This document shows positions 14,554 to 59,102 of a stretch of DNA of 64,000 bases, one piece after another. The notes under the pieces were generated by a model, which ran no database searches, had not been told where the DNA came from, and saw only the letters and a list, made by a program, of their open reading frames with translations. The position numbers and the translations under genes are program-made. Position 1 is the first letter of the stretch. Every line of letters starts with the position of its first letter. The DNA is from Candidatus Woesearchaeota archaeon (GTDB lineage: Archaea; Nanobdellota; Nanobdellia; Woesearchaeales; ARS49). Location of the stretch: the NCBI GenBank assembly GCA_016215315.1, contig JACRKG010000054.1:74305-138304 (forward strand), in the 5' to 3' direction.

Positions 14554-14622
14554 TGGTTTATAGTTTATGGTTTGTAGTTCATAGTACGTCCTGTAAACTA
14601 TAAACTGCGAACCATAAACTAA
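14554..14622. repeat. Heptad-palindrome element, copy 1 (imperfect inverted repeat of tandem YRGTTYR heptads around GTACGTCCTGT)
   Basis: ggtttatagtttatggtttgtagttcatagtacgtcctgtaaactataaactgcgaaccataaactaa. Confidence 0.8.
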
Positions 14623-14799
14623 TCTGCGGTCGGCAAGGAGAAAATTTAAGTATTCAAAAAGCTCAAGTAAGTCAGAGACAAATTAATTATTGCCTAACAT
14701 CAAAAAAATACTAATTTTAACTTTTTTTATAAGAATTTTTAAATGTTTTCAAAGCATTTGAATAATTTAAAATCTTGCTTTGTTTTTTAAAAGGGGCTT

Positions 14800-14831
14800 G
14801 TGGGATTCTTCGTTACCAGAGGGAATCCCAC
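14800..14831. terminator. Perfect 9-bp stem hairpin (GTGGGATTC / GAATCCCAC) flanked by T-runs on both strands; candidate terminator downstream of the zinc-ribbon gene
   Basis: A GC-rich stem in AT-rich context, 42 nt past the stop of 14873..15166. Confidence 0.3.
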
Positions 14832-14872
14832 TGCTACCCTTTTGTTCTCATCTGGAGGGCCTAATATCCAGA

Positions 14873-15166
14873 TTAGCGTGAATTGTTGAGTTCAAAATCG
14901 AATGTTCTTTTGAATTGTTCTGAGTGATTTTTTGGTACAAAATTTTTTGCTTCTTCACAATAACAATGAGCACATACGTTGAGTTCTTTCTTGCATACTA
15001 TGCAATTGACTCCTGTACTGAAGTGCTCAAATAATTGTGTTACTGCTTTAACTTCTTCAGGTTCTCCTGCTTGAAAGTCTGACAGCCATTGTGCTATTTC
15101 TAACTGCAGACACTCGCTGCATACCGGATTTGTTATTGCCTCATTGCATATGTTACAATTGCCCAT
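14873..15166 (-). CDS. Small zinc-ribbon protein with four CxxC pairs
   Basis: CNICN...CSEC...CIVC...CAHCYC. Confidence 0.5.
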   Translation of the reverse strand: MGNCNICNEAITNPVCSECLQLEIAQWLSDFQAGEPEEVKAVTQLFEHFSTGVNCIVCKKELNVCAHCYCEEAKNFVPKNHSEQFKRTFDFELNNSR

Positions 15167-15430
15167 ATTATACCTTGAGGCTCTTCAGCAAAGTAAGAAT
15201 TCGTCTTTGCCAAGAGCCTCACTTTAACTTGTTTGTTTATTGTGTGGCTCTTAGCGATAATCACACACAATAATATCTAATAATGTAAATGCACATTTTG
15301 TGACATTAGTTGTGTGATTACTCATAATGTATAGGTAAAAAGAACTTATTTATATATTTTGCGCAAAAATTGTACATATTAACACTCTTCTGACTTTTTG
15401 TTACTAATTGTGTCAAAATGAAAAACCTTT

Positions 15431-15505
15431 TAGTTCACTGTTTACGGTTTGCAGTTTACAGTCGATGCAGTTCTGTAAACTGTGAACTGCAAACGGTAAA
15501 CTAAG
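15431..15505. repeat. Heptad-palindrome element, copy 2
   Basis: tagttcactgtttacggtttgcagtttacagtcgatgcagttctgtaaactgtgaactgcaaacggtaaactaa. Confidence 0.8.
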
Positions 15506-15536
15506 ATTTATATACCTCCGTTCTTCCTCTGTCTTT

Positions 15537-16496
15537 ATGGGCGCATGCGGTATTCAATTATATCAGGAAAATGTAAGTTATGATCAGAATTTTATTGATA
15601 AAATAGATAGTACTGTAAAAAACACTATTGAACAATATCAACTTTTTAATAAGGATGATAAAATTCTTGTCGCAGTTAGTGGAGGTAAGGATAGTACTGT
15701 TTTAGTTCACATTTTGAAAAGTTTAGGTTATTCTTTTGAGTGCGTAACTGTTGATGCACACATTGGTTGTTATACTGAACAAAACTTGTTAAACATTAGA
15801 AAAATGTGCGCTAGTGTAAATGTTAAATTGCACGAAATTCCTTTTAGAGAAGTTTTTGGCGCTTCATTATGCTATATCAGAGATACTTTGAATGAGAATG
15901 GTTTGAACTTAAAATCTTGCACTGTTTGTGGAGTTCTTAGACGATCTTTATTAAATAAAAGAGCTCGTGAAGTTGGTGCAACTAAATTAGTTATGGGACA
16001 TAATTTAGATGACGCTGCTCAAGCATTCATGATGAATTTGTTAAAAAACAAAAATAATTTATCTGCACGAATGGGTGTTACAACTGGAGTTGTAAAAAAT
16101 TCTTTATTAGTTACTCGAGTAAAACCATTATACTTGGTTGCTGAAAAAGATATAGTTGATTATAGTAAAATGATGGATTTTCCAGTATATTACGGCAAGT
16201 GTCCTTGTTCAACTGAAGGATTTAGAAATCATATTAAGGATTTGCTCAATGAATTGGAAAAAGTACATCATAATGTTAAAGAAAACATTGTTAATTATTT
16301 CTTGAAAAAAATGCCTTTATTACAGGAGAAATGTAAGGGCGATATGATTAATAATTTTTGCATTCAATGTGGAGAAGTTACAACTGGAGAATTATGCAGG
16401 CCTTGTAGTTTGCTCCAGGACTTTAAAAGATTCACGCAACCTATTCAATTCTCTGCTGCTCAAGAAGCGCCAAGTGCCGAGCTTAACATTAGTTAA
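15537..16496 (+). CDS. PP-loop ATPase of the tRNA thiolation family (TtcA/NcsA/Ncs6-like) with a C-terminal Cys cluster
   Basis: SGGKDS PP-loop motif; C-terminal CIQCGEVTTGELCRPC. Confidence 0.65.
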   Translation: MGACGIQLYQENVSYDQNFIDKIDSTVKNTIEQYQLFNKDDKILVAVSGGKDSTVLVHILKSLGYSFECVTVDAHIGCYTEQNLLNIRKMCASVNVKLHEIPFREVFGASLCYIRDTLNENGLNLKSCTVCGVLRRSLLNKRAREVGATKLVMGHNLDDAAQAFMMNLLKNKNNLSARMGVTTGVVKNSLLVTRVKPLYLVAEKDIVDYSKMMDFPVYYGKCPCSTEGFRNHIKDLLNELEKVHHNVKENIVNYFLKKMPLLQEKCKGDMINNFCIQCGEVTTGELCRPCSLLQDFKRFTQPIQFSAAQEAPSAELNIS

Positions 16497-17111
16497 TTCT
16501 AAATTTGCTATTCTTATTCTTTTAAGTCTTAGAATTTTGTATTTTAATGTACTCAATGCATCTCTTATTATGTGCTTTCTTCCTTCGTGAAGTATTATTC
16601 TTAACCTTTTATCTGTTTCTAAAGTTATTCTTTTAATTCCTACTTTTCTACCTTCTATTCTCATTTTTTTTAATTTTGAAATATCTTCAATGTTAAATGG
16701 TTGTGCAGTCCAAACTAAGTATTCTTTTTCAGTACCAAAACTGGGATGGGTTAGTCTATTTGCTAATTCTCCGTCATTAGTTAATATCATTAATCCTTGA
16801 GAATTTTTATCCAATCTTCCAACGGGAAAAACTCTTTCTTTTATTCTAACTAAACGCATAATGGTTTTTTCGCCATGCTCAGTACTTACAGTTGATGAAA
16901 TGAATCCTTGAGGCTTGTTCAGCATTATGTAAACAGGACTTTGTAATTGTATTGGTTTACCGTCGACAGTTATTGAGTCTTTTGGTGTGGCTTTATCTCC
17001 CAATATTACAGTTCTTCCATTAATCTTGACTCTACCTTGAGCTATTAATGTCTCGCAAAGACGTCTACTTCCAATTCCCGCTCTAGCAATTATTTTTTGA
17101 ACTCGTTCCAT
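16392..17111 (-). CDS. Pseudouridine synthase of the RsuA/RluB family with an S4 RNA-binding domain
   Basis: An S4-like N-terminus (IARAGIGSRR...GRVKINGR) and the catalytic block VGRLDKNSQGLMILTNDG. Confidence 0.7.
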   Translation of the reverse strand: MERVQKIIARAGIGSRRLCETLIAQGRVKINGRTVILGDKATPKDSITVDGKPIQLQSPVYIMLNKPQGFISSTVSTEHGEKTIMRLVRIKERVFPVGRLDKNSQGLMILTNDGELANRLTHPSFGTEKEYLVWTAQPFNIEDISKLKKMRIEGRKVGIKRITLETDKRLRIILHEGRKHIIRDALSTLKYKILRLKRIRIANLELTNVKLGTWRFLSSRELNRLRESFKVLEQTTRPA

Positions 17112-17113
17112 TT

Positions 17114-17182
17114 TAGTTTGTAGTTCGTAGTTTACAGTTTATAGTACGTCCTGTAAACTGCAAACTGTAAACTGTGAACTAA
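17114..17182. repeat. Heptad-palindrome element, copy 3; starts 3 nt from the start codon of the minus-strand pseudouridine synthase gene
   Basis: tagtttgtagttcgtagtttacagtttatagtacgtcctgtaaactgcaaactgtaaactgtgaactaa. Confidence 0.8.
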
Positions 17183-17192
17183 GAGGGCAATG

Positions 17193-17200
17193 TTTATAAA
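17193..17200 (+). promoter_or_regulatory. TATA box (TTTATAAA) centred about 26 nt upstream of the ATG at 17222; implies a leaderless transcript
   Basis: Archaeal TATA consensus at the canonical spacing. Confidence 0.45.
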
Positions 17201-17221
17201 TCTAGTACCTACTTTCAGAGC

Positions 17222-17758
17222 ATGGACTTCGTCTTTCCAAACAATAATGAAGAGGAATTTGCAAAAACAGCCAAAAAATTAAGCATTGATAATCTGGTTT
17301 TTGTTTATACTGACATTAAGATGGTTAAAAAAATGGAAGGAGTCAAAACTGCATTATTAGCAAGTCCAAAACAAGTTAACAGTGCAAAAAGATTTGTTGA
17401 TTTTGTTATTGTTAAAAGTGGAGAAGATGATCGTTTTGCTTTAGAAAAAAGCAAGCCTGATTTCATGTTTGGTTTTGAGTTTGCAGGAAGAAAAGATTTC
17501 ATGCACCAAAGAGCTTCTGGTTTAAATCAAGTTCTTTGCAAAATAGCTAAGAAAAATAATATAAAGATTTTATTTCCTTTTTCGGACTTACTAAAACAAT
17601 TACCTGAGAATAAAAGTGTAATAATTGGCAGACTAATCCAAAACATTAAATTGTGCAGAAAATATGGAGTTAGTTTAAGCATCTGTTCTTTTGCAAAAAC
17701 TCCTTTTGAGATGAGAAAAATGAAAGATTTGGAAAGTTTTGTCCGAATTCTGAATTAA
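17222..17758 (+). CDS. Probable RNase P protein component 3 (Rpp30-like); assignment tentative
   Basis: A block pattern resembling archaeal Rpp30, recalled from memory: GRKDFMHQ...LCKIAKKNNIKILFPFSDLL...CRKYGVSLSICSFAKTPFEMR. Confidence 0.35.
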   Translation: MDFVFPNNNEEEFAKTAKKLSIDNLVFVYTDIKMVKKMEGVKTALLASPKQVNSAKRFVDFVIVKSGEDDRFALEKSKPDFMFGFEFAGRKDFMHQRASGLNQVLCKIAKKNNIKILFPFSDLLKQLPENKSVIIGRLIQNIKLCRKYGVSLSICSFAKTPFEMRKMKDLESFVRILN

Positions 17759-17836
17759 ATTCAATCAAAGAACTTATTTGCCATCCGATCCCCGTAATGT
17801 TTGATACCTGATTGAAGTCTTCTGATATCTCGCGAA

Positions 17837-18622
17837 TTAGTATTGTTTATTAAATAATCTTTTAATACAATCATCTGCAACGCGGGAGGGTCCGTTTTCT
17901 ATTGATGCGATTAATAATTCTGCTAAGCTTTTTGCGTTTTCATTATTTTTGGTTTTATCAAAAATAACTTCTCCTTTAAATTTAGAAAGATCAAAACAAG
18001 AATAGGTTAAATCTTTTTTTGAAATACTTCCTTCGTGTAATTCATCGCTTTTTCCATCAAAACCGTCATCAAAAACTAACAATACAGGTATTTGTGTATC
18101 TTCCGGTAAATTTTTCAAAAAGTTTTTATCAGTATATTCTTTAGGAATTATTTGGTATGCAGCAACATAAGGTCTGTTTAGTGATCTTAACAATATTTGA
18201 GTACAATGGAATGATTCGCTTTCTTGATTGTAAGTTGTTTCGTTTTCGTTCCATGCGCCGCTCCAAAAAACTATTGAGTTCTCATAATCTGTTTCATTGA
18301 AATCATTGTTTATTATGCTAATCAAATTTAAGCTGTCTTCTTTAGGGTTTGGTTTCAAATCATCTTTTCCTTGTGATTGAAGATATGTTCTTATTTTTTC
18401 TTCATTAATTGAGTTAGGATTAGTTGTAAGAATTTTTAGTAAAACTTCATTAAGCTTGATTACTTTGTATTCAACAATTTCAGAACTAGTTTCTTTTGGT
18501 AATTGAATTATTTCATGTGTTTCAGGCTCAAATTTGTGATTTTTGACTCTGTCAAGAGCATAATAGCCTCCAATACCCAAAATAGTACAAATCGCGGCAA
18601 TACTTACAATTCTTTTGAACAT
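17837..18622 (-). CDS. Membrane-anchored hypothetical protein
   Basis: An N-terminal TM helix; no recognisable motifs. Confidence 0.4.
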   Translation of the reverse strand: MFKRIVSIAAICTILGIGGYYALDRVKNHKFEPETHEIIQLPKETSSEIVEYKVIKLNEVLLKILTTNPNSINEEKIRTYLQSQGKDDLKPNPKEDSLNLISIINNDFNETDYENSIVFWSGAWNENETTYNQESESFHCTQILLRSLNRPYVAAYQIIPKEYTDKNFLKNLPEDTQIPVLLVFDDGFDGKSDELHEGSISKKDLTYSCFDLSKFKGEVIFDKTKNNENAKSLAELLIASIENGPSRVADDCIKRLFNKQY

Positions 18623-18676
18623 TTGTTTATTTAAGAAAGTAGATTTTATAAGCTTTTAATATTAACAATAACAAAC

Positions 18677-18746
18677 TAGTTCATAGTTTACGGTTTGCAG
18701 TTTACAGTACGTCCTGTAAACTGTGAACTACAAACCGTAAACTAAC
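18677..18746. repeat. Heptad-palindrome element, copy 4; its terminal CTA supplies the TAG stop of the minus-strand gene 18742..20181
   Basis: tagttcatagtttacggtttgcagtttacagtacgtcctgtaaactgtgaactacaaaccgtaaactaa. Confidence 0.8.
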
Positions 18747-20181
18747 TAATAATCCGATAAAAAAAAGCGGCAATCTTTGAGAAGAAACCAGTACTGCTGT
18801 TTTTGATTGTTCTAAATGATTGACCTGTAATTGGTGAGTAAGATCCTCTCAAACCTTCAGGAGTTATTCCTTCCATTCTTTCCGCACTTAAATCATAAGC
18901 ACGACTAACTTCATTACAATTAACTGACTTAAGCTGAGGAACCCAATCACCGCTTTCTGGATAAGAGCAAGTGAAACAGCCTTTAACACCGTTTTGATAA
19001 GTGTATCTTACTGATTCTTCTAAATTTATTGTAACTGCAGTACTTCCTGGCTCTCCAGTTATTGTTGGGCCAAATATGCATGCATTAGAAATTCCGAATC
19101 TGTAACGATCATTAGTTCTAACTCTTTCTTTATCCCAATCAAAACCTCTTAAGTCTGTTCTTCTACAATTAACTTCGTCTAACGAATTAAATGGTTCTCC
19201 TTTTGCACATTTAAAACATCTGGTTTCTGATGGTGGGCCTTCAAATTGATATCTGATTGTTTCTCCAATGTGAACTCTCAGAGTACTTATTGGTTCTGTA
19301 CTTGGTTTTTTATTATCTTTTGCAGAAGGATCAAAATCGCAAGTGTTAAGAGAGTTTTTCCCCGCTCCAAATTCTTCGTTGCAATAATCCAGAGAAGCAA
19401 CTTCGGTGCTTACTCCATTAATTGCTAAATTTTTGCAATTACTTAGAGTCATTTTTTCGTGTCTTGTATTCATTCCCGCTTGAGACGTAGTGACTTTGCA
19501 ACATACAGTAATATCAGTAAGGCCGGGTTGTAATTCATTTGTATACGAGTTACAAGATTCAACAGGAATGTCTATTTTTTCTCCACCATTTCTTTTGCAA
19601 GCAGTAGGACCTAAAGCACTAAGAATTTCCAAACCAGTTTTTGGACTTCTGTATTTACAACAAACATCATTACATGCTTCTTCGAGGAGAACTTCTCCAC
19701 CCATTTCTTGACACAATCCAATGCTGATTGGCTCGTCCCCAGAAACTTTATTATGCCATGCGGGGCCGTCAGGCGTATTAATTTTACAGCAAGAAGTTTT
19801 ACACATTTCTTCTGGATGACTGAAGAGTCCTTCTGCTCGGCAATTACCTGCTAAGCCCTTCTCCCATCTGCTCACACTCATTCCTTTAACTTGTTGCTGA
19901 CAACAAACTTGTGCACACATAGCATCAGAAGCAATATTTCCTCTTAATTCGCTAATACAATAATCTTGAAATACTTTTGCGTACCCATCTTTAGTATAAC
20001 AACATACCAATTCTTGAGGAATCAAAGGTTCAGTTTCTCTTTCCCTAGGAACACTTGTTTGCTGCATTAAAACTATTGGACATTGATTTTCTTCATCTTC
20101 ATAAACAAGTATTTTTGCGTTAACAATAGTTAGAATTAAGAGGAGCAAGGATAAAAGCAATAATAACCTCGTTTTTTGCAT
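18742..20181 (-). CDS. Secreted cysteine-rich protein with recurrent vicinal CC motifs
   Basis: A signal-peptide-like N-terminus (LLLLLSLLLLILTIVNA) and repeated motifs such as VCCYTKDG, VCCQQQV, SCCKINT, VCCKYRS, VCCKVTT. Confidence 0.5.
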   Translation of the reverse strand: MQKTRLLLLLSLLLLILTIVNAKILVYEDEENQCPIVLMQQTSVPRERETEPLIPQELVCCYTKDGYAKVFQDYCISELRGNIASDAMCAQVCCQQQVKGMSVSRWEKGLAGNCRAEGLFSHPEEMCKTSCCKINTPDGPAWHNKVSGDEPISIGLCQEMGGEVLLEEACNDVCCKYRSPKTGLEILSALGPTACKRNGGEKIDIPVESCNSYTNELQPGLTDITVCCKVTTSQAGMNTRHEKMTLSNCKNLAINGVSTEVASLDYCNEEFGAGKNSLNTCDFDPSAKDNKKPSTEPISTLRVHIGETIRYQFEGPPSETRCFKCAKGEPFNSLDEVNCRRTDLRGFDWDKERVRTNDRYRFGISNACIFGPTITGEPGSTAVTINLEESVRYTYQNGVKGCFTCSYPESGDWVPQLKSVNCNEVSRAYDLSAERMEGITPEGLRGSYSPITGQSFRTIKNSSTGFFSKIAAFFYRIIS

Positions 20182-20191
20182 TACTGTTCTT

Positions 20192-20293
20192 ATGCGGGTT
20201 TGTTATTTAAAAATATTGCTACAAAATATTATTTTTATCATCTTTTAGATTTTTCGCAGAAAAATCTAGAAAGATTTTTAAAACAACCCGCAT
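20192..20293 (+). promoter_or_regulatory. Nested inverted repeats upstream of the L34e gene. The outer pair is ATGCGGGTTTGTT / AACAACCCGCAT; the inner perfect 9-bp hairpin is TAGATTTTT-cgcag-AAAAATCTA.
   Basis: Read from the sequence. The element ends 12 nt before the L34e ATG. Confidence 0.35.
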
Positions 20294-22124: not shown

Positions 22125-22156
22125 CTGTAAACTATAAACCGTAAACTACGAACTAG
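22125..22156. repeat. Heptad element half-copy
   Basis: ctgtaaactataaaccgtaaactacgaactag. Confidence 0.6.
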
Positions 22157-22164: not shown

Positions 22165-22491
22165 TTAACTAACGTTAACCAAATAATTTCCTGGTTTAAT
22201 AAGTCCTTTTCTACAAAGGTCATTGAGAATTACGCGAGTAGCATATTTGTATGATCCGTCTTTGATGAATTCCTCTAAATCACTTTTATCATACTCTTCA
22301 ATAACTCCGTCGATCTCATGAAACTCTTTAGAAACATCGTCACTAACCTCTTCTGCGTCGGTAAAATTAAACTCTTGATTATAAACTTGTTCAACAAAAT
22401 TTTCTAAGTGAGCTGATTCCACTTTAAATAAACTTATTTCCTCAACTTTCAATTGAGGTGTTTTCTGTTTTTTTTCAGTCATAACAATCAA
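22165..22491 (-). CDS. Acidic hypothetical protein
   Basis: ORF only. Confidence 0.35.
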   Translation of the reverse strand: MIVMTEKKQKTPQLKVEEISLFKVESAHLENFVEQVYNQEFNFTDAEEVSDDVSKEFHEIDGVIEEYDKSDLEEFIKDGSYKYATRVILNDLCRKGLIKPGNYLVNVS

Positions 22492-22545
22492 AGAAACAGT
22501 GATTCATTTTAAACTTTTCTCCTAATCAAAAGTAAGCTTTTTAAT

Positions 22546-23178
22546 ATGTTGTTTATTGCTAAATACGTGCTTAAAGAATTTATTGATCCAGAATATCTGC
22601 AACCAGAAAAATTCAAGAAAGAATTTCTAAACAACAAACCTTTCCCTTACTTAGAGCTAAAATGTTTTCTGAAAGAAAACAGGGCAATAGAATTACTCAA
22701 AGCATTAAGTCAAGAAAAGTTTTTCAACAAAGAAGCGGACTTATTCAAGTTTTCTCAAACAAATGATTTAGGAAAAACACAAAACAAAGTAATAAAAGAA
22801 TTTGTTCAATTCTTGTACTCGAAAGAATTCATTGATTTCATGCAAAAACTAACAGGATTCAAATTCAAAAACAAAGCAGACATTGCAGGAACACTATACC
22901 AAAACACAGACTACTTATTATGTCATGATGATGAATTAGAAGGAAGAAAAATAGCCTATCTTTTCTACTTAACAAACATGGAAGAAAAAAAAGGTGGAAG
23001 CCTAAACTTGCTGGAATCGGGTGTCGATGGAAATCCTTCAGGTATCCTGAAAAAAATAGTTCCAAAATTCTGCACGCTTGCATTTTTTGAAGTTTCGCCA
23101 ATATCCTTTCATGAAGTAGAAGAAGTGATTGTTGACGAACAAAGAATAGCTATCGGCGGATGGTTTTATAGTTTGTAG
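22546..23178 (+). CDS. 2OG-Fe(II) oxygenase (OGFOD1/Tpa1/prolyl-hydroxylase-like catalytic double-stranded beta-helix (DSBH) domain)
   Basis: HxD...H iron ligands (LCHDDE ... SFHEV); the terminal TAG stop lies inside a heptad element. Confidence 0.5.
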   Translation: MLFIAKYVLKEFIDPEYLQPEKFKKEFLNNKPFPYLELKCFLKENRAIELLKALSQEKFFNKEADLFKFSQTNDLGKTQNKVIKEFVQFLYSKEFIDFMQKLTGFKFKNKADIAGTLYQNTDYLLCHDDELEGRKIAYLFYLTNMEEKKGGSLNLLESGVDGNPSGILKKIVPKFCTLAFFEVSPISFHEVEEVIVDEQRIAIGGWFYSL

Positions 23179-23200
23179 TTTGTGGTTCGGGGTTTGAAGT
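23167..23200. repeat. Heptad element half-copy (variant with GGTTCGGGGTTTGAAGT); contains the stop codon of 22546..23178
   Basis: tatagtttgtagtttgtggttcggggtttgaagt. Confidence 0.6.
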
Positions 23201-23221
23201 CTCGGACGACGGATATATTAA

Positions 23222-23761
23222 ATGATAAACAAAACATATTTGACTAAAATAGAAGAAATAAAAAAAGCATTCCATACAAATAAATATTTTCCTAGTATAC
23301 AACTACATAATTTTTTAATTAATTTTGAGGAACTAAAGAAAAAAGTTGACAAATCAAAATTTGAAAAGGAAACTAACTTATTGAGCCACAGGCTTAGCAA
23401 GGCAGAACTAAAATTAGATATTCTCGAATTCAGAGAATTTTTATCAAAAATTCTCAACAAAAAAATAACAAACACAACATTCACAGTATACAAACTAGAA
23501 TGGAAAGACTTCAAAATACTAAATGATGATTGCGTTGAAAAACCGGGAATAGATATTATTCTTGATTTTACTGAAAACTGGAATACTGAAAGCGGCGGAC
23601 AAATAATTTATTCAGACGGATCTGGAGAAAACTACACTATGCCTGTACTGAAAAATTCTCTAACTATTGTAGAAAGAAAAAAAGGAGTACAAAAATTCTT
23701 CAAGTATGTGAATAATTTGGCAGGAAATGGAAAAAGGCAGTTTCTGCTGTTGAGTGTTTGA
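23222..23761 (+). CDS. DSBH-like domain protein paralogous to the C-terminal part of 22546..23178 but lacking the His ligand; resembles the non-catalytic second domain of OGFOD1/Tpa1
   Basis: DFKILNDDCVEKPGIDIILDF...GGQIIYSD aligns with DYLLCHDDELEGRKIAYLFYL...GGSLNLLES. Confidence 0.4.
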   Translation: MINKTYLTKIEEIKKAFHTNKYFPSIQLHNFLINFEELKKKVDKSKFEKETNLLSHRLSKAELKLDILEFREFLSKILNKKITNTTFTVYKLEWKDFKILNDDCVEKPGIDIILDFTENWNTESGGQIIYSDGSGENYTMPVLKNSLTIVERKKGVQKFFKYVNNLAGNGKRQFLLLSV

Positions 23762-24449
23762 AACTTCAAAAACGCAACATTTATATATTATTGTTATTTT
23801 ACAATCATATTATTGCAATAATACAATGATGTTAACTAAATTTCAGCAAAGTATTGTGGCTTTGCTTGCGAGTGATATTACTAGAGAATACACAATACGT
23901 GAAATCTCGCAAGTACTTAGAAAGAATTATAGAAATACCTATGAATCAGTCCAGGAACTAATTAAGAATAAAATAATTCACAAAAAAAGAGTTGGAAGGT
24001 CAGATATTTGTTCTTTAGACTTAAAACAAGAAGAAACTATAGATTCTCTTGTTGGGGCAGAGGAATTGAGGAAATTATCTTTTAAAAAAAAGCATAGTTC
24101 AATCAAAATATTGCTTTTTGAATTGATCTCTAAATTTAAAAAATATACTTCTTTTTTTTGCATGGTTGTTTTTGGTTCATATGCCTCAGGAACAGCCCGG
24201 GAAAGATCAGATTTGGATTTATTAATGATTTTGCCAGACATAAAACAAAAAAACAATTTTATTAAAGAGATGAACTTAATGCAAATAACAACAAATGTAA
24301 CTATTAGCCCCATAATCATCAGTGAAAATGAATTTAGAGATATGTTAAGTAGTAAACAAGAAATTAATGTTGGAAAGGAAACAATTAAAAAACACATACT
24401 GTTTTATAATTCACAAATCTTTTGGGAACTAGTAAAAAATGAAACTTAA
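23754..24449 (+). CDS. HTH plus minimal nucleotidyltransferase (MNT-like)
   Basis: VVFGSYASGTARERSDLDLLMILPD. Confidence 0.55.
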   Translation: MFETSKTQHLYIIVILQSYYCNNTMMLTKFQQSIVALLASDITREYTIREISQVLRKNYRNTYESVQELIKNKIIHKKRVGRSDICSLDLKQEETIDSLVGAEELRKLSFKKKHSSIKILLFELISKFKKYTSFFCMVVFGSYASGTARERSDLDLLMILPDIKQKNNFIKEMNLMQITTNVTISPIIISENEFRDMLSSKQEINVGKETIKKHILFYNSQIFWELVKNET

Positions 24450-24993
24450 ATTTGAAGTCAAACAAGCGGTTCAGCAACACGTTAAGAAAGGAGAAATAGT
24501 TGAGAATGATGTAGTTGTTAAGAGTCAGTGTAGACTATTCTTATCAAAGGCTGAGCGAAATTTAGCTACTGCCAATTTATTATTGACAATTACTGAACAA
24601 AAAAGATTGAAGGATATTCACGGGTTACCGAACGATTTTTCTGCCGCTGAATGGGGTATAATAATAAGTTATTATAGTATGTTTCATGCGGCAAAAGGAG
24701 CTTTAGCTAAACTTGGGATAAAAATAACTGAGGACAATCCGCATGAAGCAACACTAAATTCCATGTACTTTTATTATTTGTTTTCGGGAAAATTAGAGGA
24801 GAAATTATTTGATAAACTTCAAAATGCCAAAGAAGAAGCAATAAAATTAATTGAAAGCTTGGGAAGGGCAAGAACCTTGAGAAATGAAGTTAATTATGAA
24901 TTAAAAGAGTTGCCAAGAGTACAAACCGCTAAAGGTATTTTTGATGATGCTAAAGTTTTCGTAAGCAAAATGAAAGAAATTGTGTTTTTATAA
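24439..24993 (+). CDS. All-alpha protein, putative HEPN-like partner of the upstream NTase
   Basis: An 11-nt overlap with the NTase gene and a helical composition; the motif match is weak. Confidence 0.3.
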   Translation: MKLKFEVKQAVQQHVKKGEIVENDVVVKSQCRLFLSKAERNLATANLLLTITEQKRLKDIHGLPNDFSAAEWGIIISYYSMFHAAKGALAKLGIKITEDNPHEATLNSMYFYYLFSGKLEEKLFDKLQNAKEEAIKLIESLGRARTLRNEVNYELKELPRVQTAKGIFDDAKVFVSKMKEIVFL

Positions 24994-25027: not shown

Positions 25028-25070
25028 TAGTTCATTTACTATAAACTACAAACCGTAAACTATGAACTAC
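25028..25070. repeat. Heptad element half-copy that overlaps the stop of the minus-strand gene 25067..25807
   Basis: tagttcatttactataaactacaaaccgtaaactatgaactac. Confidence 0.6.
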
Positions 25071-30585: not shown

Positions 30586-30635
30586 TTAAAACCCCTCCTA
30601 AACATAACAAATACGATCTAATATAAAAAGTTTAT

Positions 30636-30724
30636 TAGTTTACAGAACTGGTTTGAAGTTTAAAGTTTGTAGTTTATAGGACGTCCTATAAACTGTAAAC
30701 TACAAACTATGAACTATAAACTAG
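30636..30724. repeat. Heptad-palindrome element, copy 8 (long, 89 bp)
   Basis: tagtttacagaactggtttgaagtttaaagtttgtagtttataggacgtcctataaactgtaaactacaaactatgaactataaactag. Confidence 0.8.
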
Positions 30725-36557: not shown

Positions 36558-36568
36558 GAGTTTTCAGA

Positions 36569-39398: not shown

Positions 39399-39409
39399 GA
39401 GGTTAGTAA

Positions 39410-40015: not shown

Positions 40016-40020
40016 AGAAA

Positions 40021-43166: not shown

Positions 43167-44133
43167 AATAAACATTCCTGAATTTGCCAGATATGTAGAA
43201 AATTATATTGCCTATTCTTTTGATAGAGAAAATTTTTTGATGAGACTTGTTGAAGAATCTTTAAGCACTCCTTACCAAAAAGAAGGTGTTTGTTTTTGTC
43301 ATAACACTGAATTAGCTTTACGCTTACTAAAAACAGGTTATGACTCGTTGCGTGATGTAAGATCAAGAGATTATTCGATAGCAGTTGCTAAAGCAATGCA
43401 AGAATTCGCAGAACCATTTCCTAGCGGAGATTATAATTTGTGTTATCCGCACTTCTTACTACATGGACTTGAACTAGGAACTTTAGAAGGAGTTGTTGGC
43501 AAGATCAGAAATAATTCTAGAATAATTCATGAAACTTTAGCAATAAGAGCTAAAGTTGCTCACGAGTATGATGTTAAAGAATTTGTTCCAGTTAAAGGAG
43601 TTGAAATGCCTGTAGACCCAAATAATGGCGCGCATTTTGTTGAAGGGTTTCATACCGCTTTAAGCACGGCATTTTGTTACGGTTTGTGTGAAGACTTTTT
43701 TGGAATTACTTTAGCATTAGGAAAACAATGCTCAGGTCATCCACGTGGGTCAAATTATATTGTGAAAGTTAGCTTTTTTTTAGACACAACAAAAAAAGAA
43801 ATTTACATAATAACAATTCAAGGGAAACAATTTAGCGAAGGAATGAACAACGAAGTCGTGAGAGTTAAAAATGAAAAATTCTGGGGAATGTTAACGACAA
43901 GATTAGGAACAAGTCCCAGAACTTTCTTACTGAAAAAAGTAATGGAGTGGGGAAAACAAAACGGTTATGAAAGAATCAAAGTAATAAGAGCTAAAGATCA
44001 CCCGTTAACAATAGAACAACACAAAGGATTCTTAGCAAATTACGAACCAGTAGTAATCAAGGCAGGAATAAATCAAGAAAATGGATGTTATTTAGAAGCA
44101 AAACTAGAGAATATGGTGAACGAAAATGAATGA
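43159..44133 (+). CDS. Hypothetical protein (324 aa)
   Basis: Coupled ORF. Confidence 0.4.
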   Translation: MAKINIPEFARYVENYIAYSFDRENFLMRLVEESLSTPYQKEGVCFCHNTELALRLLKTGYDSLRDVRSRDYSIAVAKAMQEFAEPFPSGDYNLCYPHFLLHGLELGTLEGVVGKIRNNSRIIHETLAIRAKVAHEYDVKEFVPVKGVEMPVDPNNGAHFVEGFHTALSTAFCYGLCEDFFGITLALGKQCSGHPRGSNYIVKVSFFLDTTKKEIYIITIQGKQFSEGMNNEVVRVKNEKFWGMLTTRLGTSPRTFLLKKVMEWGKQNGYERIKVIRAKDHPLTIEQHKGFLANYEPVVIKAGINQENGCYLEAKLENMVNENE

Positions 44134-44476
44134 CCTAGAACTCTACAATCAATCAAAAACTGAAATAAAGAATTTAGAAAAATACATTCCTTTAGCTCAC
44201 GATCTCTTAGAAACCAGATTGACGCCCAACGATAGACGGGCGGTTGAGGAAGGTTTGTTAATTATGGAAATGGATTTAAAACATGAACAAAGCACTATTG
44301 AACGATTAACGCAAGAAATGTTTGAACAAATAGCAACAGAAACAGTTATTGATCAAGAAGAAATCAATACAGAAGAAATTGATGACTGGCTAAAGCAAGA
44401 CGCTGAAACTTTCCAAAAGTTATTGCAAGAAATTTATTTAGAATTAGAAGATTTAAGAGGGAAATACAAAAAATGA
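44126..44476 (+). CDS. Acidic helical hypothetical protein
   Basis: Coupled ORF. Confidence 0.4.
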   Translation: MNDLELYNQSKTEIKNLEKYIPLAHDLLETRLTPNDRRAVEEGLLIMEMDLKHEQSTIERLTQEMFEQIATETVIDQEEINTEEIDDWLKQDAETFQKLLQEIYLELEDLRGKYKK

Positions 44477-45123
44477 AACTCCCTGATTTTATGGAAGCGA
44501 AAGCGGAAGTGAAAAGAATAAATCGTTATATTACATTAGGTGAAAGTCTTTTAGAAAAAAGTTTGAGTGATGAAGAACATTCTTATGTTACCAATAATAT
44601 TGAGTTTTTAAGAGAAAAATTGGTTTGCTATGAAGAAGTAGTTGAATGTTCTAGAGATAAATTTTTTATAGATGCACAAATAGTCGGTGAAGGAGACAAT
44701 CCTTTAAGCATAGAAAACCTAGTTAAAGAAGATGTTAGTTCTTTAGAATGGAGAGTGAGAATTTCCTCTTCAATGAAAAAATTCTTTTCAGGAATAGCCT
44801 ATTTACACATTCCTTTCTTAGGAAAAAAAGCAGAAAATTTAGCAAACTTTTACGAAGAAAGAAAACAACTCTATGAAATAAGATTGCGAAGTGTTAAAAG
44901 CGCAAAATCACTTCAAAAATTACAAGAAGAAAGAAAAAAAGAAAATTATGAAACCATAAAAAAAGAATGCAAAGAAAAAAACATTAAGACTGATGAAGAA
45001 TCATTAGAAAGATTCTCAGAAAATCCTTTACTGTTGATTTATTCTGCTTTTGAATCACTGAATGAATTATACCAAGATCCTTTGAGTGGAGAATATGATT
45101 ATTTGAGGCCTGAAGATGACTAA
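44473..45123 (+). CDS. Hypothetical protein
   Basis: Coupled ORF. Confidence 0.4.
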   Translation: MKLPDFMEAKAEVKRINRYITLGESLLEKSLSDEEHSYVTNNIEFLREKLVCYEEVVECSRDKFFIDAQIVGEGDNPLSIENLVKEDVSSLEWRVRISSSMKKFFSGIAYLHIPFLGKKAENLANFYEERKQLYEIRLRSVKSAKSLQKLQEERKKENYETIKKECKEKNIKTDEESLERFSENPLLLIYSAFESLNELYQDPLSGEYDYLRPEDD

Positions 45124-45820
45124 GCTTTACAAAACAAAATATACTTTAGGAAGTTATGCTGACTTATTTATGAGCGCACCTATTGGTGTTGCTAGAGGTG
45201 TTTCTAAGGCTACTGGTTGTTTATGTGACAAACTTAATTATGAAACTCCTGAATTCTTTAATTGGGAAAAAACAACACAAAACAGTCCAACATACAAAGC
45301 AAGACAATCTTTAAGAGAAAAATTAGATACTGAACCAGGAGTTAAATTCTTACAAAGCAATTTGTTGTCAGTTCCTCCATTTTTTTTAATAGGAATGCCT
45401 GCAGCAGAAGGAATGCATGTTTTAATACAAAAACACATGGGGCAAACACCAGAAATAGTTCAGTATGTAACAAACTCTTTAGGAACATTACTGGCACAAA
45501 TGATTACAGGATATCTTACTTTTATGATTGGAGAAGTTTACTCAAACAAACAAAAATACGTTAATGAAAACGGTAAATTAAGTGCCAAAAAAATAGGTAA
45601 AGGAGTTTTGACTGCACTTAAAACATTTTTAACATTTGATTTATCTTATATCGGAATGAAAACAGCAGGACAATCAACAATGCTTGCTTTAGGAAAATCT
45701 CCCGCAATGGCATCAGCACTAACAGACTTAATGGCATTTCCCGCATATTGGAGCATAGCAATACCTTTAGGACTAAAAAAAGGATTGATTCAAGCGAGAA
45801 AACCAAAGGAGGAAAAATGA
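45116..45820 (+). CDS. Membrane protein
   Basis: Several hydrophobic helices. Confidence 0.4.
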   Translation: MTKLYKTKYTLGSYADLFMSAPIGVARGVSKATGCLCDKLNYETPEFFNWEKTTQNSPTYKARQSLREKLDTEPGVKFLQSNLLSVPPFFLIGMPAAEGMHVLIQKHMGQTPEIVQYVTNSLGTLLAQMITGYLTFMIGEVYSNKQKYVNENGKLSAKKIGKGVLTALKTFLTFDLSYIGMKTAGQSTMLALGKSPAMASALTDLMAFPAYWSIAIPLGLKKGLIQARKPKEEK

Positions 45821-46359
45821 AAATTCCCGATTACAGAAAAGAAATATTGAACAAGAAAATTCAAGAATTAAAAGAAAAATATGGAGAAATTAATTTGGAT
45901 TCTTTAGACAGAATCGGAAGAGATTCTGGTTTTAGCGAAGTTATTCACGTTCCTTACTTAAGATTATGGGGGGCAGTTGGGGAGGATAAGGATAGTAATG
46001 GGGTAGTTCTATACTCTGGAATTTTACCACTTGCAAAAAAACTAGACTTAGCCTACCAATTAGCACCCACACTTTTAGAAGAAGAACAAAAATACCAAAA
46101 TGAAAAAGAAAGAGTGATAGAAATATATTATTTTGTAAAAAAATTATTAGGAACGAATTGGATTGCTTCAAGATCTTTAACCTTGCTCGATGAAATACCT
46201 TCATTAGCAGTTTACATGAGTTACCCTTGGATCAATGTTTTCCTTGGCCTTCCTGTAAAGAAATTACGAGAATCAAAAGAATTATTCAAGGCCAAGGAAA
46301 ACAGAATAAAAGAATTAGGACTGGAACATTTGATTAATGAAGAGGTAATGCCTGAATGA
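45817..46359 (+). CDS. Hypothetical protein
   Basis: ATGA overlap with the upstream stop and the RBS aaggagg; the ORF-track start at 45748 is less likely. Confidence 0.4.
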   Translation: MKIPDYRKEILNKKIQELKEKYGEINLDSLDRIGRDSGFSEVIHVPYLRLWGAVGEDKDSNGVVLYSGILPLAKKLDLAYQLAPTLLEEEQKYQNEKERVIEIYYFVKKLLGTNWIASRSLTLLDEIPSLAVYMSYPWINVFLGLPVKKLRESKELFKAKENRIKELGLEHLINEEVMPE

Positions 46360-47096
46360 AGGATCAAATTTTAGAAAAAAGGTTGGAAGAATTTTGGCAG
46401 CTTCACAACGAATTAAGTCGTACTGCTTTCATTAAAAGAACTGGATTGAAAGGTTTTGATAAAGTAAGATCTGTTTATGCCGATGGAGAGCTTGTTTACA
46501 AATTTAATTTTGGTCAATCAGAAGTAAATGCTTTGGAAAGAATTAAAGGCATAGAAAATGTTCAACAATTAGTTGTTTATGATGGACATGTTTTAGTTAC
46601 AGAGCTTATTAAAGCAAAACATTTCAAAAAAGGCACTCAACCGAAAAGAGAGCATTTAGAAAAATTATTAATAACTCTTTTAGCTTTACGAGATAAAAGT
46701 GTTGGATTCTCAGACATTTATGAAGGTAATTTATTGCACTCACAAGAACTCGGTTTTTTTCCAATAGATCTTTATTATTTAGGTTTGCCCCAAAAACCAG
46801 ATATTGAAGTGCCACGTTTAGCGTCTTGTATGAGTTGTAGTGGTCCTAAATTTTTAGACAGGTATTTAACTTTGTTAGATTTATTTTATGATTTAAATCC
46901 TAAAGTCGCTAGAGATCTTTTGAAAGATTGTGTTTCATTTTCAGAGAATTCGTTTTTTCCTGAATTTTGCGGTCTTAGCGCAACTCAAATAGATTTTAAA
47001 AAAATAAGAACAGTTTTAGAAAAATATCGCCTTTTTTGTGATCATGCACATTCATGTAAGTATACTCTTGGAGGCTATTTTAGACTAATCAAATGA
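46356..47096 (+). CDS. Protein-kinase-like-fold protein (APH/Kdo-kinase-like)
   Basis: VYKF (beta-3 Lys), catalytic-loop-like FSDIYEGNLLH (DxxxxN), and PIDL. Paralogous to 48513..49241. Confidence 0.4.
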   Translation: MKDQILEKRLEEFWQLHNELSRTAFIKRTGLKGFDKVRSVYADGELVYKFNFGQSEVNALERIKGIENVQQLVVYDGHVLVTELIKAKHFKKGTQPKREHLEKLLITLLALRDKSVGFSDIYEGNLLHSQELGFFPIDLYYLGLPQKPDIEVPRLASCMSCSGPKFLDRYLTLLDLFYDLNPKVARDLLKDCVSFSENSFFPEFCGLSATQIDFKKIRTVLEKYRLFCDHAHSCKYTLGGYFRLIK

Positions 47097-49241: not shown

Positions 49242-49380
49242 TTTAATAAAAAATAAATTTTTAAGTTTAAATAAATGATGACAAAAAACACAATCAACTA
49301 GTAATCACTAGGCATCATTATGGTGTCGAAATATTACTTGCTATCGCAGGGCATATGAATCCTTTGATGGCTTATCACTT

Positions 49381-49411
49381 ACTTCAAACCCCGAACCACA
49401 AACTATGAACC
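49381..49411. repeat. Heptad element half-copy (reverse orientation; GGTTCGGGGTTTGAAGT variant)
   Basis: acttcaaaccccgaaccacaaactatgaacc is the reverse complement of the variant at 23167..23200. Confidence 0.6.
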
Positions 49412-57055: not shown

Positions 57056-57092
57056 AAAAAATACAAAACACAGGTTATTTAAATAAGTTTGT

Positions 57093-57123
57093 CCTGGATT
57101 TTTTGCAAAGCAAAAAATCAGGG
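57093..57123. promoter_or_regulatory. Near-perfect palindrome CCTGGATTTTTTGC-aaa-GCAAAAAATCAGGG in a divergent intergenic region
   Basis: Read from the sequence. Confidence 0.3.
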
Positions 57124-57208
57124 AAACCTTTATATAATTAACTAGCTATTTTTACTATATTGTTGACTTTTTTTGCAAACAAAAAAAGAAAAAAAGGTGA
57201 ATTAAAGA

Positions 57209-57817
57209 ATGCCTGAATCATTGTTAGGAGGAGTTATAACGTTTTTAGAAAAATTGGGCGTTTATGATGTAGTGTTACCTTTCTTGTTGGTTTTTACTAT
57301 TGTTTTTGCAATTCTTGAAAAAACTAGAGTTTTTGGTGAAGAAAAAGTCGGTGATAAATCGTACTCGAGAAAGAATCTTAACGCAATGGCGGCTTTCATA
57401 ATAGGTTTTCTCGTCATAGCTTCTTCACAATTAGTTCAAGCAATCTCACAAATTTCTGCTCACGTGTTTGTAATACTTTTATTAATTGTATTCTTCTTGT
57501 TATTAGTTGGTTCTTTTTATGGCGAAGGAAAAATTGGCAAAGAAGGTTTACAGGAAGAATGGGCTAAAAATATTTTTATTGTAGTTATTTTTTTAGCAAT
57601 TGCATTTGTTTTTCTTAATGCTTTACCTGCAGGGCAAGGAAAGACTTGGCTTGAATGGATCTTTCAAGGTTCAGGAAAAGCAGTCAGTAGTCCAGCAACT
57701 GCATCGATAGTTTTAATAATCCTAATAGTAATATTTATAAGATACGTTTCCAAATCAGATAATAGTGGAGGCTCAGGTGGCTCTACTGAAGAAAAGAAGG
57801 ATAAAAAAGATGGATAA
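57209..57817 (+). CDS. Membrane protein, tandem paralog 1 of 3
   Basis: Three similar ~200-aa polytopic proteins in a row. Confidence 0.45.
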   Translation: MPESLLGGVITFLEKLGVYDVVLPFLLVFTIVFAILEKTRVFGEEKVGDKSYSRKNLNAMAAFIIGFLVIASSQLVQAISQISAHVFVILLLIVFFLLLVGSFYGEGKIGKEGLQEEWAKNIFIVVIFLAIAFVFLNALPAGQGKTWLEWIFQGSGKAVSSPATASIVLIILIVIFIRYVSKSDNSGGSGGSTEEKKDKKDG

Positions 57818-57827
57818 ATGAGGTGAA

Positions 57828-58439
57828 ATGATGCTATTTCAATATGGTGGTTTTGTATTTCAAGACGCATTAAGACAATTACAATACTGGGGAGTCTGGG
57901 ATGTACTAATTCCTTTTGCATTAATATTTGCAATAATTTTTTCAATTCTAAAAAAAACAGAAATTTTTCATAACGATGGAGTAAACATAGTTGTAGCATT
58001 ATCAACATCTTTATTGGCAATAATTCCTCATGTTTCTGGAGGATATCCACAAGGATTTGATGTTGTATTAATAATCAATCAGTTCTTTCCTCAAATAGCA
58101 TTAGTTCTTATTTCAGTAGTAATGGTTTTAATAATGACTGGATTGTTAGTTGATAAAGCAAATTATAAATTAGCAACAACTTTAGGTAAATGGGCTGCTT
58201 TAGGTTCAGCATTAATAGTTGGATTTTTGATGATTAAAGCAATCAACCCTGATCTTGGTGGTGCAAGTACAAGTTTCTTAAATGATCCTCAATTACAAGC
58301 ATTTGTTGTAGCAATATTAGCATTCGGATTAGTAGTTCTGTTTATTACAAAAGGATTTGGCGGAGGAGATGCTGCTGCTAAAGCAAAAGCTGCTGCCGCT
58401 GCAGCTCCAACATTTACCTGGGTTCCACCTAAACAATAA
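57828..58439 (+). CDS. Membrane protein, tandem paralog 2 of 3
   Basis: Paralogy with its neighbours. Confidence 0.45.
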   Translation: MMLFQYGGFVFQDALRQLQYWGVWDVLIPFALIFAIIFSILKKTEIFHNDGVNIVVALSTSLLAIIPHVSGGYPQGFDVVLIINQFFPQIALVLISVVMVLIMTGLLVDKANYKLATTLGKWAALGSALIVGFLMIKAINPDLGGASTSFLNDPQLQAFVVAILAFGLVVLFITKGFGGGDAAAKAKAAAAAAPTFTWVPPKQ

Positions 58440-58442
58440 ATT

Positions 58443-59051
58443 ATGGCAACATTCCTCGACTTTGGATTATTGAAGCCTTTTGAGCAAATATTTCCATTCT
58501 TGTTCTTAATGGTATTCTTGTATGCTGTGTTTTCAAGATTTGATATTTTTAAAGAGAGGCCTGCATTTTCTGCCATTGTTGCATTTGTATTATCAATCAT
58601 GGCAATGCTTTCACCAATACTAGTAAGAACGATTAATTTAATGGCGCCATGGTTAGTATTATTCATTATTTTGATAGTTATTCTAATGCTCGTTTATCAA
58701 ACGTTCGGAATCAAGCAGGATTCAATTGTTAATGTTATTACCGGAGATAAAGTTGGTGAAACATTCTCTTGGGTGATACTTATCATTGTTGCTTTAATTT
58801 TTATTGGAAGCTTAACGTCAGCAATAAGTGAACAAGAAGGTTTTCAAAAATTACAAACAGGAGGAAAAGTAAGTCCGGTTCCAGGACAAACTCCTAGTGT
58901 ATCTCCTATTGATGCATCAAAATTAGTTGAGCCAGGTTCAGAAAAAGAAGATTTCTTTAAAACAATATTCCATCCAAAAGTATTAGGAATAATTGTTATA
59001 ATGTTAATAGCAGTATTTGCAATACAAAGACTAAGCGCAGAAGCAAGTTAA
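58443..59051 (+). CDS. Membrane protein, tandem paralog 3 of 3
   Basis: Paralogy with its neighbours; the stop abuts a heptad element. Confidence 0.45.
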   Translation: MATFLDFGLLKPFEQIFPFLFLMVFLYAVFSRFDIFKERPAFSAIVAFVLSIMAMLSPILVRTINLMAPWLVLFIILIVILMLVYQTFGIKQDSIVNVITGDKVGETFSWVILIIVALIFIGSLTSAISEQEGFQKLQTGGKVSPVPGQTPSVSPIDASKLVEPGSEKEDFFKTIFHPKVLGIIVIMLIAVFAIQRLSAEAS

Positions 59052-59052
59052 A

Positions 59053-59102
59053 TAGTTTGTAGTTTGTGGTTTGGAGTTCACAGTACGTCCTGTAAACTAC
59101 AA
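59053..59102. repeat. Heptad-palindrome element, copy 12
   Basis: tagtttgtagtttgtggtttggagttcacagtacgtcctgtaaactacaa. Confidence 0.75.

Follow-up and report, generated by a model that had tools for sequence, protein, structure and literature searches.

A dispersed family of heptad palindromes

The window analysed here, a 64-kb stretch of contig JACRKG010000054.1, has a G+C content of around 32% and encodes proteins of archaeal type, among them PCNA, RPA, RadA, RNase P p30, TrmB, RNase HII and ribosomal proteins; its host is a small, uncultured archaeon of the Woesearchaeota type within the DPANN group. Between its genes lies a family of short elements built from tandem 7-bp units (heptads) of the form R-GTT-Y-R-Y, which occur at 12 loci: seven full or near-full palindromes (here E1 to E7) and five half copies (H1 to H5). 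The initial annotation of this DNA had proposed 12 dispersed loci with a shared consensus, and all of them were found within a few bases of where they had been placed. Moreover, when a profile made from six full copies was run against the window with nhmmer, exactly these 12 loci were recovered and no others. The E-values were 4e-13 or lower for seven loci and 1.5e-5 to 1.2e-3 for three, and the two remaining matches were weak (49377-49410, E 0.085; 23169-23195, E 0.46).

Other measures agree that the repeat family is real, well defined and far beyond chance. A strict pattern, consisting of two forward heptads, a core of 8 to 16 nt and two reverse heptads, matched five elements in the window and none in 100 shuffles, the 11-mer GTACGTCCTGT that is found in the core of several copies occurred four times where 0.15 occurrences were expected, and Tandem Repeats Finder (TRF) reported period-7 arrays at all elements. 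As had been stated at the outset, the loci are not CRISPR: neither the TRF nor the repeat output contained an array of direct repeats with unique spacers, and the copies lie kilobases apart and are internally inverted.

Anatomy of the element

A complete copy measures around 66 to 75 bp and consists of a TA dinucleotide, four R-GTT-Y-R-Y units, a core of 10 to 15 nt, four inverted units and a closing TA. The 4+4 arrangement was found in six of the seven full copies, and arms that had been annotated with four to six heptads nearly always have four. Full palindromes include E1 (14555-14620, plus strand; nhmmer E 4e-20), with four forward heptads, the core AGTACGTCCT and four reverse heptads, and E4 (18678-18743, plus; E 2e-22). 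E3 (17115-17180, plus) is likewise a full palindrome, as is E2 (15432-15502, plus), which has a longer core, AGTCGATGCAGTTCT. E6 (35388-35453) is read on the minus strand: its core GGGAAGTACT resembles the reverse complement of the common core, and its leave-one-out score was 59.3 for the minus and 48.4 for the plus strand. E5 (30629-30722, no strand assigned) is both the longest and the most divergent copy, with five reverse heptads, extra degenerate forward heptads and a perfect central palindrome, TATAGGACGTCCTATA. The seventh locus, annotated at 59053-59102 as a further full copy, differs from these six: E7 (59054-59100, plus; E 4e-13) comprises a forward arm, a core and a single reverse heptad, matching model positions 3-52 only, and its reverse arm is truncated or decayed.

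The commonest core is AGTACGTCCT, and four copies have in common an identical, non-repetitive core of 11 to 17 nt. The GTACGTCCTGT core had been presented as a general feature, but among the seven larger copies only four have it (E1, E3, E4 and E7); the core of E5 reads GGACGTCCTAT, and E2 and E6 carry other cores.

To describe the unit itself, 72 heptads were scored in fixed phase, and this tabulation bears out the shared consensus. The GTT triplet is invariant (215 of 216 bases), while the other positions vary almost exclusively within their purine or pyrimidine class: A/G 53/17 at position 1, T/C 55/17 at position 5, A/G 45/27 at position 6 and C/T 35/30 at position 7. Departures from AGTTTAC amounted to 92 transitions against 9 transversions. 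The arms are tandem heptads that are not self-complementary and have no fixed tetranucleotide head, and a register offset of one heptad between the arms is common to four of five copies. The ends are defined as well. TA|GTT…AAC|TA termini were present in 17 of 20 cases versus 0.31 expected from internal junctions (p=8e-7). In nearly all copies terminal inverted repeats, 5' TAGTTYRY…RYRAACTA 3', bound a short non-coding element. The terminal TA, itself a palindrome, would also suit positions 7 and 1 of the heptad, and may belong to the unit.

The half copies comprise several kinds of remnant. H1 (22127-22154; E 2e-5) is a solo reverse arm of four heptads, H2 (23170-23200) a solo forward arm that ends at the arm/core junction (…AGT), and H5 (49384-49411; E 0.085) again a solo reverse arm. 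H3 (25030-25068; E 1.5e-5) has one terminal forward heptad and a complete reverse arm, and H4 (36517-36565; E 1e-3) is a unidirectional array of six to seven decaying forward heptads.

Position relative to genes

All 12 loci are intergenic at a coding density of 87.4% (p=1.6e-11), and much of each occupied spacer is filled by its element. Divergent, convergent and tandem spacers are all occupied, roughly in proportion to the spacer length available (5, 4 and 3 loci, respectively, by manual count), in line with the earlier view that the elements are not simple terminators. Thus E1 lies in a convergent spacer, E2, E6 and H5 lie in divergent ones (E6 upstream of RPA) and E4 in a tandem one.

Several copies neighbour the TFB-recognition element (BRE) and TATA box of genes, which include those for PCNA, RPA, RNase P p30, a PP-loop ATPase and a pseudouridine synthase. 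The TATA box of the PP-loop ATPase gene (start 15537) lies 4 nt downstream of the end of E2. E3 is close to two genes: its start is 3 nt away from the ATG of the gene for the pseudouridine synthase (16392-17111, minus strand), and its other end is 10 nt short of the TATA box of RNase P p30. E5 has the promoter of the PCNA gene (29839-30585) on one side and, on the other, a gene for a 168-aa protein (start 30734), with 12 nt between the element and the ATG of the latter, and other copies end 0 to 30 nt upstream of conserved TATA boxes. The innermost forward heptad of E3 gives TATAAAC at -32 to -26 of the pseudouridine synthase ATG, and in E5 such a heptad lies about 44 nt upstream of the start. 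That TATA-like heptads abut start codons had been remarked before, with E3 as an example; this is indeed the case, and the remark gains weight because the host is an archaeon. E3 and E5 nearly abut start codons, so the promoters of those genes would have to lie inside the elements, which would then donate them by way of their TATAAAC/GTTTATA heptads.

Stop codons are involved as well. In three elements the terminal TAGTT supplies or overlaps a TAG stop codon. The terminal AACTA of E4 overlaps the TAG stop of an open reading frame (ORF) at 18742-20181 (minus strand), H2 overlaps the TAG stop of a gene for an OGFOD1-like oxygenase, and the end of H3 overlaps that of the TrmB gene. In addition, H1 is situated 10 nt from the stop of the ORF at 22165-22491 (minus strand), H4 lies directly 3' of the RPA stop codon, and E7 starts 2 nt past a stop codon.

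The OGFOD1-like gene is one of a pair. Two adjacent genes, 22546-23178 and 23222-23761, separately encode the catalytic domain (210 aa) and the C-terminal domain of a homologue of OGFOD1/Ofd1, the ribosomal prolyl 3-hydroxylase of eukaryotes. The possibility that H2 had split a single gene was rejected, as the nearest prokaryotic homologues are stand-alone N-domain proteins of 213 to 220 aa.

Copying between sites and decay

In the three closest relatives available (L002, L005 and L006; PCNA identity 80-82% and 70%), a profile search detected no copy. The element-free regions include three spacers of which the flanking gene pair is conserved, namely those between the genes for a 97-aa zinc-finger-like protein and the ATPase, for the pseudouridine synthase and p30, and for PCNA and the 168-aa protein.

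E2 and E4 lie in unrelated spacers, but their arms differ by only 2+2 nt over 56 nt and have the same unusual order of heptads. This likeness, together with the common register offset, indicates that the copies of the family stem from a common source rather than from independent local expansion. Copying between sites is also suggested by E1, which is located in the apical loop of a hairpin, between the stem halves CCGATCGC…GCGGTCGG of a structured non-coding unit of around 150 nt. A second copy of this unit, at 59.1 kb, has the same stem around an ordinary 36-nt loop that is free of the element. The 5' parts of the two units align strongly; the 3' parts, taken by themselves, align only marginally (27 of 500 shuffles were as good) but are collinear and complementary to the stem. 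The near-identical copies and the presence of E1 in a loop that is empty in the paralogue therefore argue that copies were transferred between sites. With moderate confidence, the orthologous spacers of the relatives and the paralogous loop may be regarded as empty counterparts of filled sites.

The non-coding unit deserves mention in its own right. Its two copies (14463-14650 and 59118-59262) are richer in G+C than their surroundings and did not match Rfam; they have in common a hairpin around GTGCAC, a hairpin CCGCAGC(A)GCGG and a stem CCGAWCGC/GCGKTCGG. The first holds E1 in its last loop, and the second has E7 around 15 nt upstream. A similar motif is present in L002, in a GC-rich spacer of 370 nt downstream of TrmB, and the unit is a candidate for a lineage-specific small RNA.

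The half copies suggest how elements are lost. In H1, H2 and H5 the break falls at the arm/core junction, and H3 has lost an internal stretch; the reverse complement of H5 equals H2 over an exact 24-mer (AGTTTGTGGTTCGGGGTTTGAAGT), with the same breakpoint, although the two are 26 kb apart. Solo arms would thus seem to arise by breakage at the centre of the palindrome. A 4163-bp short-read contig of the same organism (L001, from Logan accession SRR12113407), which corresponds to positions ~14571-18733 of the window, starts within E1 and ends within E4, as expected if the repeats or palindromes break the assembly graph; E5 was assembled through in L358.

The region around E1 to E4 also differs in arrangement from the relatives. 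At ~14.6-20.2 kb, a block with the genes for the 97-aa protein, the ATPase, the pseudouridine synthase and p30, plus two genes that are absent from the relatives, is inverted relative to L34e-KOW, which the four-gene block directly adjoins in L002 and L005. We considered an inversion bracketed by two elements and rejected it: only the left breakpoint adjoins an element (E1), and the right one (20181-20265) is without a heptad element. At this right breakpoint, upstream of L34e, an inverted repeat of 17 to 20 bp, GCGGGTTTGTTATTTAAAAA (20193-20212) and TTTTTAAAACAACCCGC (20272-20291), encloses around 60 nt. A second region that differs between genomes is the block 22165-24993, which contains a nucleotidyltransferase module, is bounded by the solo arms H1 and H3 and is absent from L002.

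Folding and the conserved unit

For the full copies, DNA hairpins of -14.6 to -21.6 kcal/mol were predicted, at z-scores of -5.5 to -9.2 (E1, dG -15.8 and z -7.0; E2, z -7.7; E3, -6.2; E4, -9.2; E5, -5.5; E6, -8.2), and folding supports the notion that the arms can pair in shifted registers. The corresponding RNA hairpins had predicted free energies of -25 to -36 kcal/mol.

The pairing is not, however, specific to the individual copies. Mismatches numbered 1.10 per heptad between an element's own arms and 1.14 between arms of different elements, and 58 of 120 permutations were as good as the actual pairing. In a consensus structure of 30 pairs, 93.3% of the cells were paired versus 93.1% after shuffling the partners among the sequences, and the covariation term contributed -0.75 of -33.65 kcal/mol. 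Neither the arm permutations, the partner shuffles nor the consensus structure revealed compensatory covariation between the arms. Since the arms show no excess of complementarity, the hairpin potential follows from the shared heptad consensus and not from selection on structure in each copy; what is conserved would seem to be the heptad and not the hairpin.

On the plus strand the consensus hairpin of E1 to E6 contains 28 G.U cells versus 9 A.C cells, and plus-strand RNA would pair better in five of these six copies. The G.U excess parallels the positive GC skew of the window and could reflect a mutational skew or strand-specific selection. In the leave-one-out comparison five copies favoured the plus strand, one the minus strand and one was ambiguous, which is not a significant bias. 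No Rfam 15 family matched at gathering score in the whole window (E1 gave only sub-threshold matches to generic miRNA hairpins), and no tRNAs were found.

Occurrence in other genomes

The architecture of the element, as opposed to its core, is widespread. A pattern describing it matched one locus in IMG/VR, at least 108 loci in the genome collection and at least 120 in metagenomes, where the number of chance matches for the genome collection was estimated at ~4 for uniform composition and ~20 for 35% G+C. Around 70% of the matches listed extend beyond the required heptads, and the outer, unconstrained heptads of the listed matches obey R-GTT-Y-R-Y at 75-91% per position. The hosts among the listed matches were mostly Bacteroidota, next to Patescibacteria, Bdellovibrionota and other bacterial phyla (L145, L183, L195 and L129/L135/L184 are examples among the loci L129-L356). 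The bacterial palindromes are intergenic as well (6 of 116 in ORFs) and lie mainly at the 3' ends of genes, 33 in convergent versus 8 in divergent spacers and a median of 18 nt past the stop codon, among the matches listed. Several Segatella copri genomes have one heptad palindrome at the same locus, and a metagenome-assembled genome (MAG) of the Bacteroidota, JAYVUK01, had matches on six contigs. A second copy was found at only 2 of the 229 outside loci listed, versus six to seven copies plus solo arms in the 64 kb studied here. The heptad palindrome architecture is widespread but sporadic in bacteria, and here it has become an expanded family.

The sole archaeal match listed, in a Nanoarchaeota MAG (L225), was rejected as a relative, being an unconvincing, single short palindrome on a contig of 47% GC. 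A pattern of four tandem heptads in one orientation turned out to be unspecific, with at least 120 viral loci that were mostly plain microsatellites. Annotated plasmids and phages gave no blastn match, to which the low-complexity filter may have contributed, and a full-text search of the open literature for heptad strings returned only unrelated primer matches. Generic REP-like palindromes have been predicted in archaea, but the R-GTT-Y-R-Y unit is not described there (PMC12306157).

With low probability, the R-GTT-Y-R-Y palindromes form a cross-domain class that is made or read by one shared, undescribed mechanism, which could be a conserved heptad-reading protein or a universal process of slippage plus hairpin formation that favours this unit. 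If so, the present archaeal genome would be a case in which the class escaped into a burst of proliferation. A systematic census could show whether heptad palindromes are a general, overlooked class.

Comparison with known elements and preferred explanation

The closest parallels are found among the repetitive extragenic palindromic (REP) sequences and their composites, BIMEs and REPINs. These, too, are short, extragenic and multi-copy, consist of an inverted doublet that folds as a hairpin, occupy all types of spacer and have a lineage-specific sequence. In REPINs the inverted doublet is the replicating unit and singlets are remnants, with which the seven doublets and five solo or deleted arms of the present family compare well. 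The differences lie in the unit and in the associated enzyme. A REP is an imperfect palindrome of 20 to 40 nt with a GTAG/CGTC head, whereas an arm here consists of four degenerate tandem heptads; and REP, BIME and REPIN sequences are mobilised by a REP-associated tyrosine transposase (RAYT), an IS200/IS605-like Y1 HUH transposase, which was not found among the ~85 ORFs of the window, in what is moreover a DPANN archaeon.

Miniature inverted-repeat transposable elements (MITEs), such as the Correia elements of Neisseria and the archaeal MITEs/PATEs, are similar in being non-coding, around 70 to 150 bp long and bounded by inverted repeats with TA ends, in lying next to genes of which they can supply or displace the promoter, and in being absent from orthologous sites in relatives. 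Here, in contrast, the inverted repeats are the whole element and are internally periodic, the TA duplication is only putative, and the window has no cognate insertion sequence. The eukaryotic foldback transposons also have inverted terminal arms of short tandem repeats that fold in several registers, but they reach lengths of hundreds to thousands of bp and are served by transposase partners of their own, so that the likeness is one of architecture only. The arms of the present family do not conform to the unit that defines REP. The family is better regarded as a new variety of the REP/REPIN/MITE kind than assigned to one of the families already defined.

The best explanation is that the family is lineage-specific and has expanded between the genes of this Woesearchaeota-type archaeon. 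As to how, we tentatively favour, as the leading candidate though one that may well prove wrong, a non-autonomous, foldback REPIN/MITE-like element that is mobilised in trans, with the heptads serving as recognition units of the mobilising protein. A protein encoded outside the window would recognise the heptads, possibly on a folded single strand, with GTT/AAC as specificity determinant, and would copy or move the element into AT-rich (TA) intergenic sites. Copies would later decay, often by a break at the palindrome centre that leaves solo arms. Because the spacers of a compact genome are short, copies would end up at or next to stop codons and the core promoters of archaeal genes, sometimes carrying or displacing a promoter; for two genes at least, the promoter would fit nowhere but inside the element, where GTTTATA/TATAAAC heptads resemble TATA boxes. 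The invariance of GTT without covariation of the arms points to the heptad as recognition unit, and the absence from relatives, the near-identical copies at unrelated sites and the position of E1 in a hairpin loop point to copying between sites.

Several observations pull the other way. A Pfam search of the ~85 ORFs in the 64-kb window identified no transposase, HUH/RAYT protein, integrase or other candidate enzyme. An unambiguous target-site duplication was not found among the copies, the terminal TA possibly belonging to the unit and the orthologous empty sites being too diverged for reconstruction. One to three heptad-like words occur at two orthologous spacers of relatives (TAAACTACGAACCATATACC in L002 and AGTTTAT…GTAAACT in L005); they may be what is left of an older family, or seeds from which arrays could grow locally. 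Finally, scans of the GTDB representative genomes and the JGI metagenomes with the exact-core pattern GTTYRYAGTACGTCCTGTAAACT gave no match, which leaves a single organism in which the family is known.

Little is known of selfish DNA in DPANN archaea, with their tiny, compact genomes. The family occupies roughly one spacer in eight of the window, often on promoters and stop codons, and a repeat family of this kind would have a marked influence on how genes are expressed and how stable the genome is. Its anatomy (7-bp arrays, an invariant GTT, near-pure transitions and no compensatory pairing) is unusual for the REP/MITE type, and the invariant-GTT heptad offers a good starting point for tracing the protein by which it is read.

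Alternative explanations

The initial annotation had left the choice between a REP/MITE-like element and an array of binding sites for a heptad-recognising protein. Both fit the data, and they may be two sides of one thing. Taken on its own, the second holds that the arrays serve the host: a protein would read the heptads and polymerise on 4+4 convergent units, like the omega repressor of plasmid pSM19035, and the role of the element would be regulation from upstream, insulation or the organisation of the chromosome. The omega sites, and the ParG boxes of TP228, are the best precedent for reading a heptad array, as these targets of ribbon-helix-helix (RHH) proteins consist of contiguous 7-bp units, direct and inverted, each of which is a recognition site. 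The invariant GTT, the conserved purine/pyrimidine class of the other positions without covariation of the arms, the nearly constant number of 4+4 units and the location of several copies 0 to 30 nt upstream of BRE/TATA boxes of information-processing genes are all in agreement with this. The RHH-bound arrays, however, have a unit of unrelated sequence (WATCACW) and are found on plasmids, upstream of a few specific promoters and adjoining the gene of the binder, whereas the present arrays occupy 12 loci in 64 kb of chromosome, convergent and tandem spacers included, and the Pfam search recovered no RHH protein or other candidate heptad binder in the window. The orthologous promoters of three relatives do without arrays, about half of the copies are found between convergent or tandem genes or right on a stop codon, and the solo and decayed arms suggest turnover rather than maintenance. 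A purely host-functional array therefore seems unlikely.

Alternatively, the palindromes might never have moved: they would be microsatellites that grew in place from inverted heptad seeds, by replication slippage and hairpin templating, and were then homogenised by gene conversion. In prokaryotes, heptameric simple repeats are found between genes more often than expected, in some cases as inverted pairs, and polymerase slippage has been proposed as their origin; they include the cyanobacterial STRR sequences, GGGGAYT of Nostoc and GGGAATC of Xanthomonas, and the R-GTT-Y-R-Y unit is not described among them (PMC4692102). They resemble the present family in having 7-base units with fixed and degenerate positions, at many intergenic loci, some in inverted pairs that form stem-loops, but they count 2 to 26 units and are mostly unidirectional and G-rich, whereas the elements studied here are nearly fixed at 4+4, palindromic around a shared unique core and have defined ends. 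Growth in place would account for the single heptads or short runs at two orthologous spacers of relatives, for arms that are offset by whole heptads and for similar palindromes that occur singly in many bacteria. Free slippage would not give an almost fixed number of around four units per arm, however, and the identical non-repetitive core in four copies, the common heptad order of E2 and E4, the TA ends, the position of E1 within the hairpin loop of the paralogous unit and the contrast between this window and the outside loci in number of copies all argue against it. We regard such an origin as rather improbable.

Much less likely is a function as RNA hairpin, in which the element would protect or process the 3' ends of transcripts or yield precursors of small RNAs. 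The predicted hairpins are very stable, variation is almost restricted to transitions and so keeps G.U pairing, plus-strand RNA pairs better, and the bacterial look-alikes listed lie preferentially at gene 3' ends. Such a function is difficult to reconcile with the complete lack of compensatory covariation, with an orientation that is inconsistent relative to the flanking genes and mixed in the leave-one-out comparison, and with the four or five copies in spacers of divergent genes, which no transcript has to traverse. The G.U excess is in keeping with the positive GC skew of the window, Rfam provides no match there, and termination in archaea is not hairpin-dependent.

Site-specific recombination sites are hardly credible: the copies are imperfect palindromes of 60 to 90 bp with GTT…AAC motifs and archaeal integrons exist, but the polarity is the reverse of that of the folded attC site (5' RYYYAAC…GTTRRRY 3', against a 5' GTT arm and a 3' AAC arm in the present elements), each arm has many units instead of one, the flanking genes are housekeeping genes of mixed orientation rather than a cassette array, and neither this nor any other recombinase target is accompanied by an integrase in the window. 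Replication-origin boxes were rejected on account of the large number of loci and the lack of an AT-rich unwinding element and of an adjacent Orc1/Cdc6 gene.

Further features of the window

Several nucleotidyltransferase genes and one nucleotidyltransferase/HEPN pair, resembling toxin-antitoxin systems, are located at 5354-8015 and 23754-24993. Around 8 kb at ~39030-47096 is taken up by co-oriented, often overlapping ORFs, among which Pfam matched only two methyltransferase-like proteins; the block is absent from the syntenic region of L005 and may be an inserted gene cluster.

Two conserved non-coding sequences without a match in Rfam flank the gene for the 97-aa protein. The first (~15170-15280), between this gene and that for the PP-loop ATPase, contains a hairpin, GAGGCTCTT…AAGAGCCTC, followed by GGCTCTTAGCGATAATCACACACAAT, and is kept in L002 (4070-4248) and L005 (15215-15504). 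The second (14795-14872, minus strand) lies directly downstream of the stop codon and consists of the hairpin TCTGGAWATTAGGCCCTCCAGA followed by a GC-rich hairpin; the TCTGGAWATTAGGCCCTCCAGA hairpin is common to all three genomes (the window, L002 4540-4620 and L005 14720-14930).

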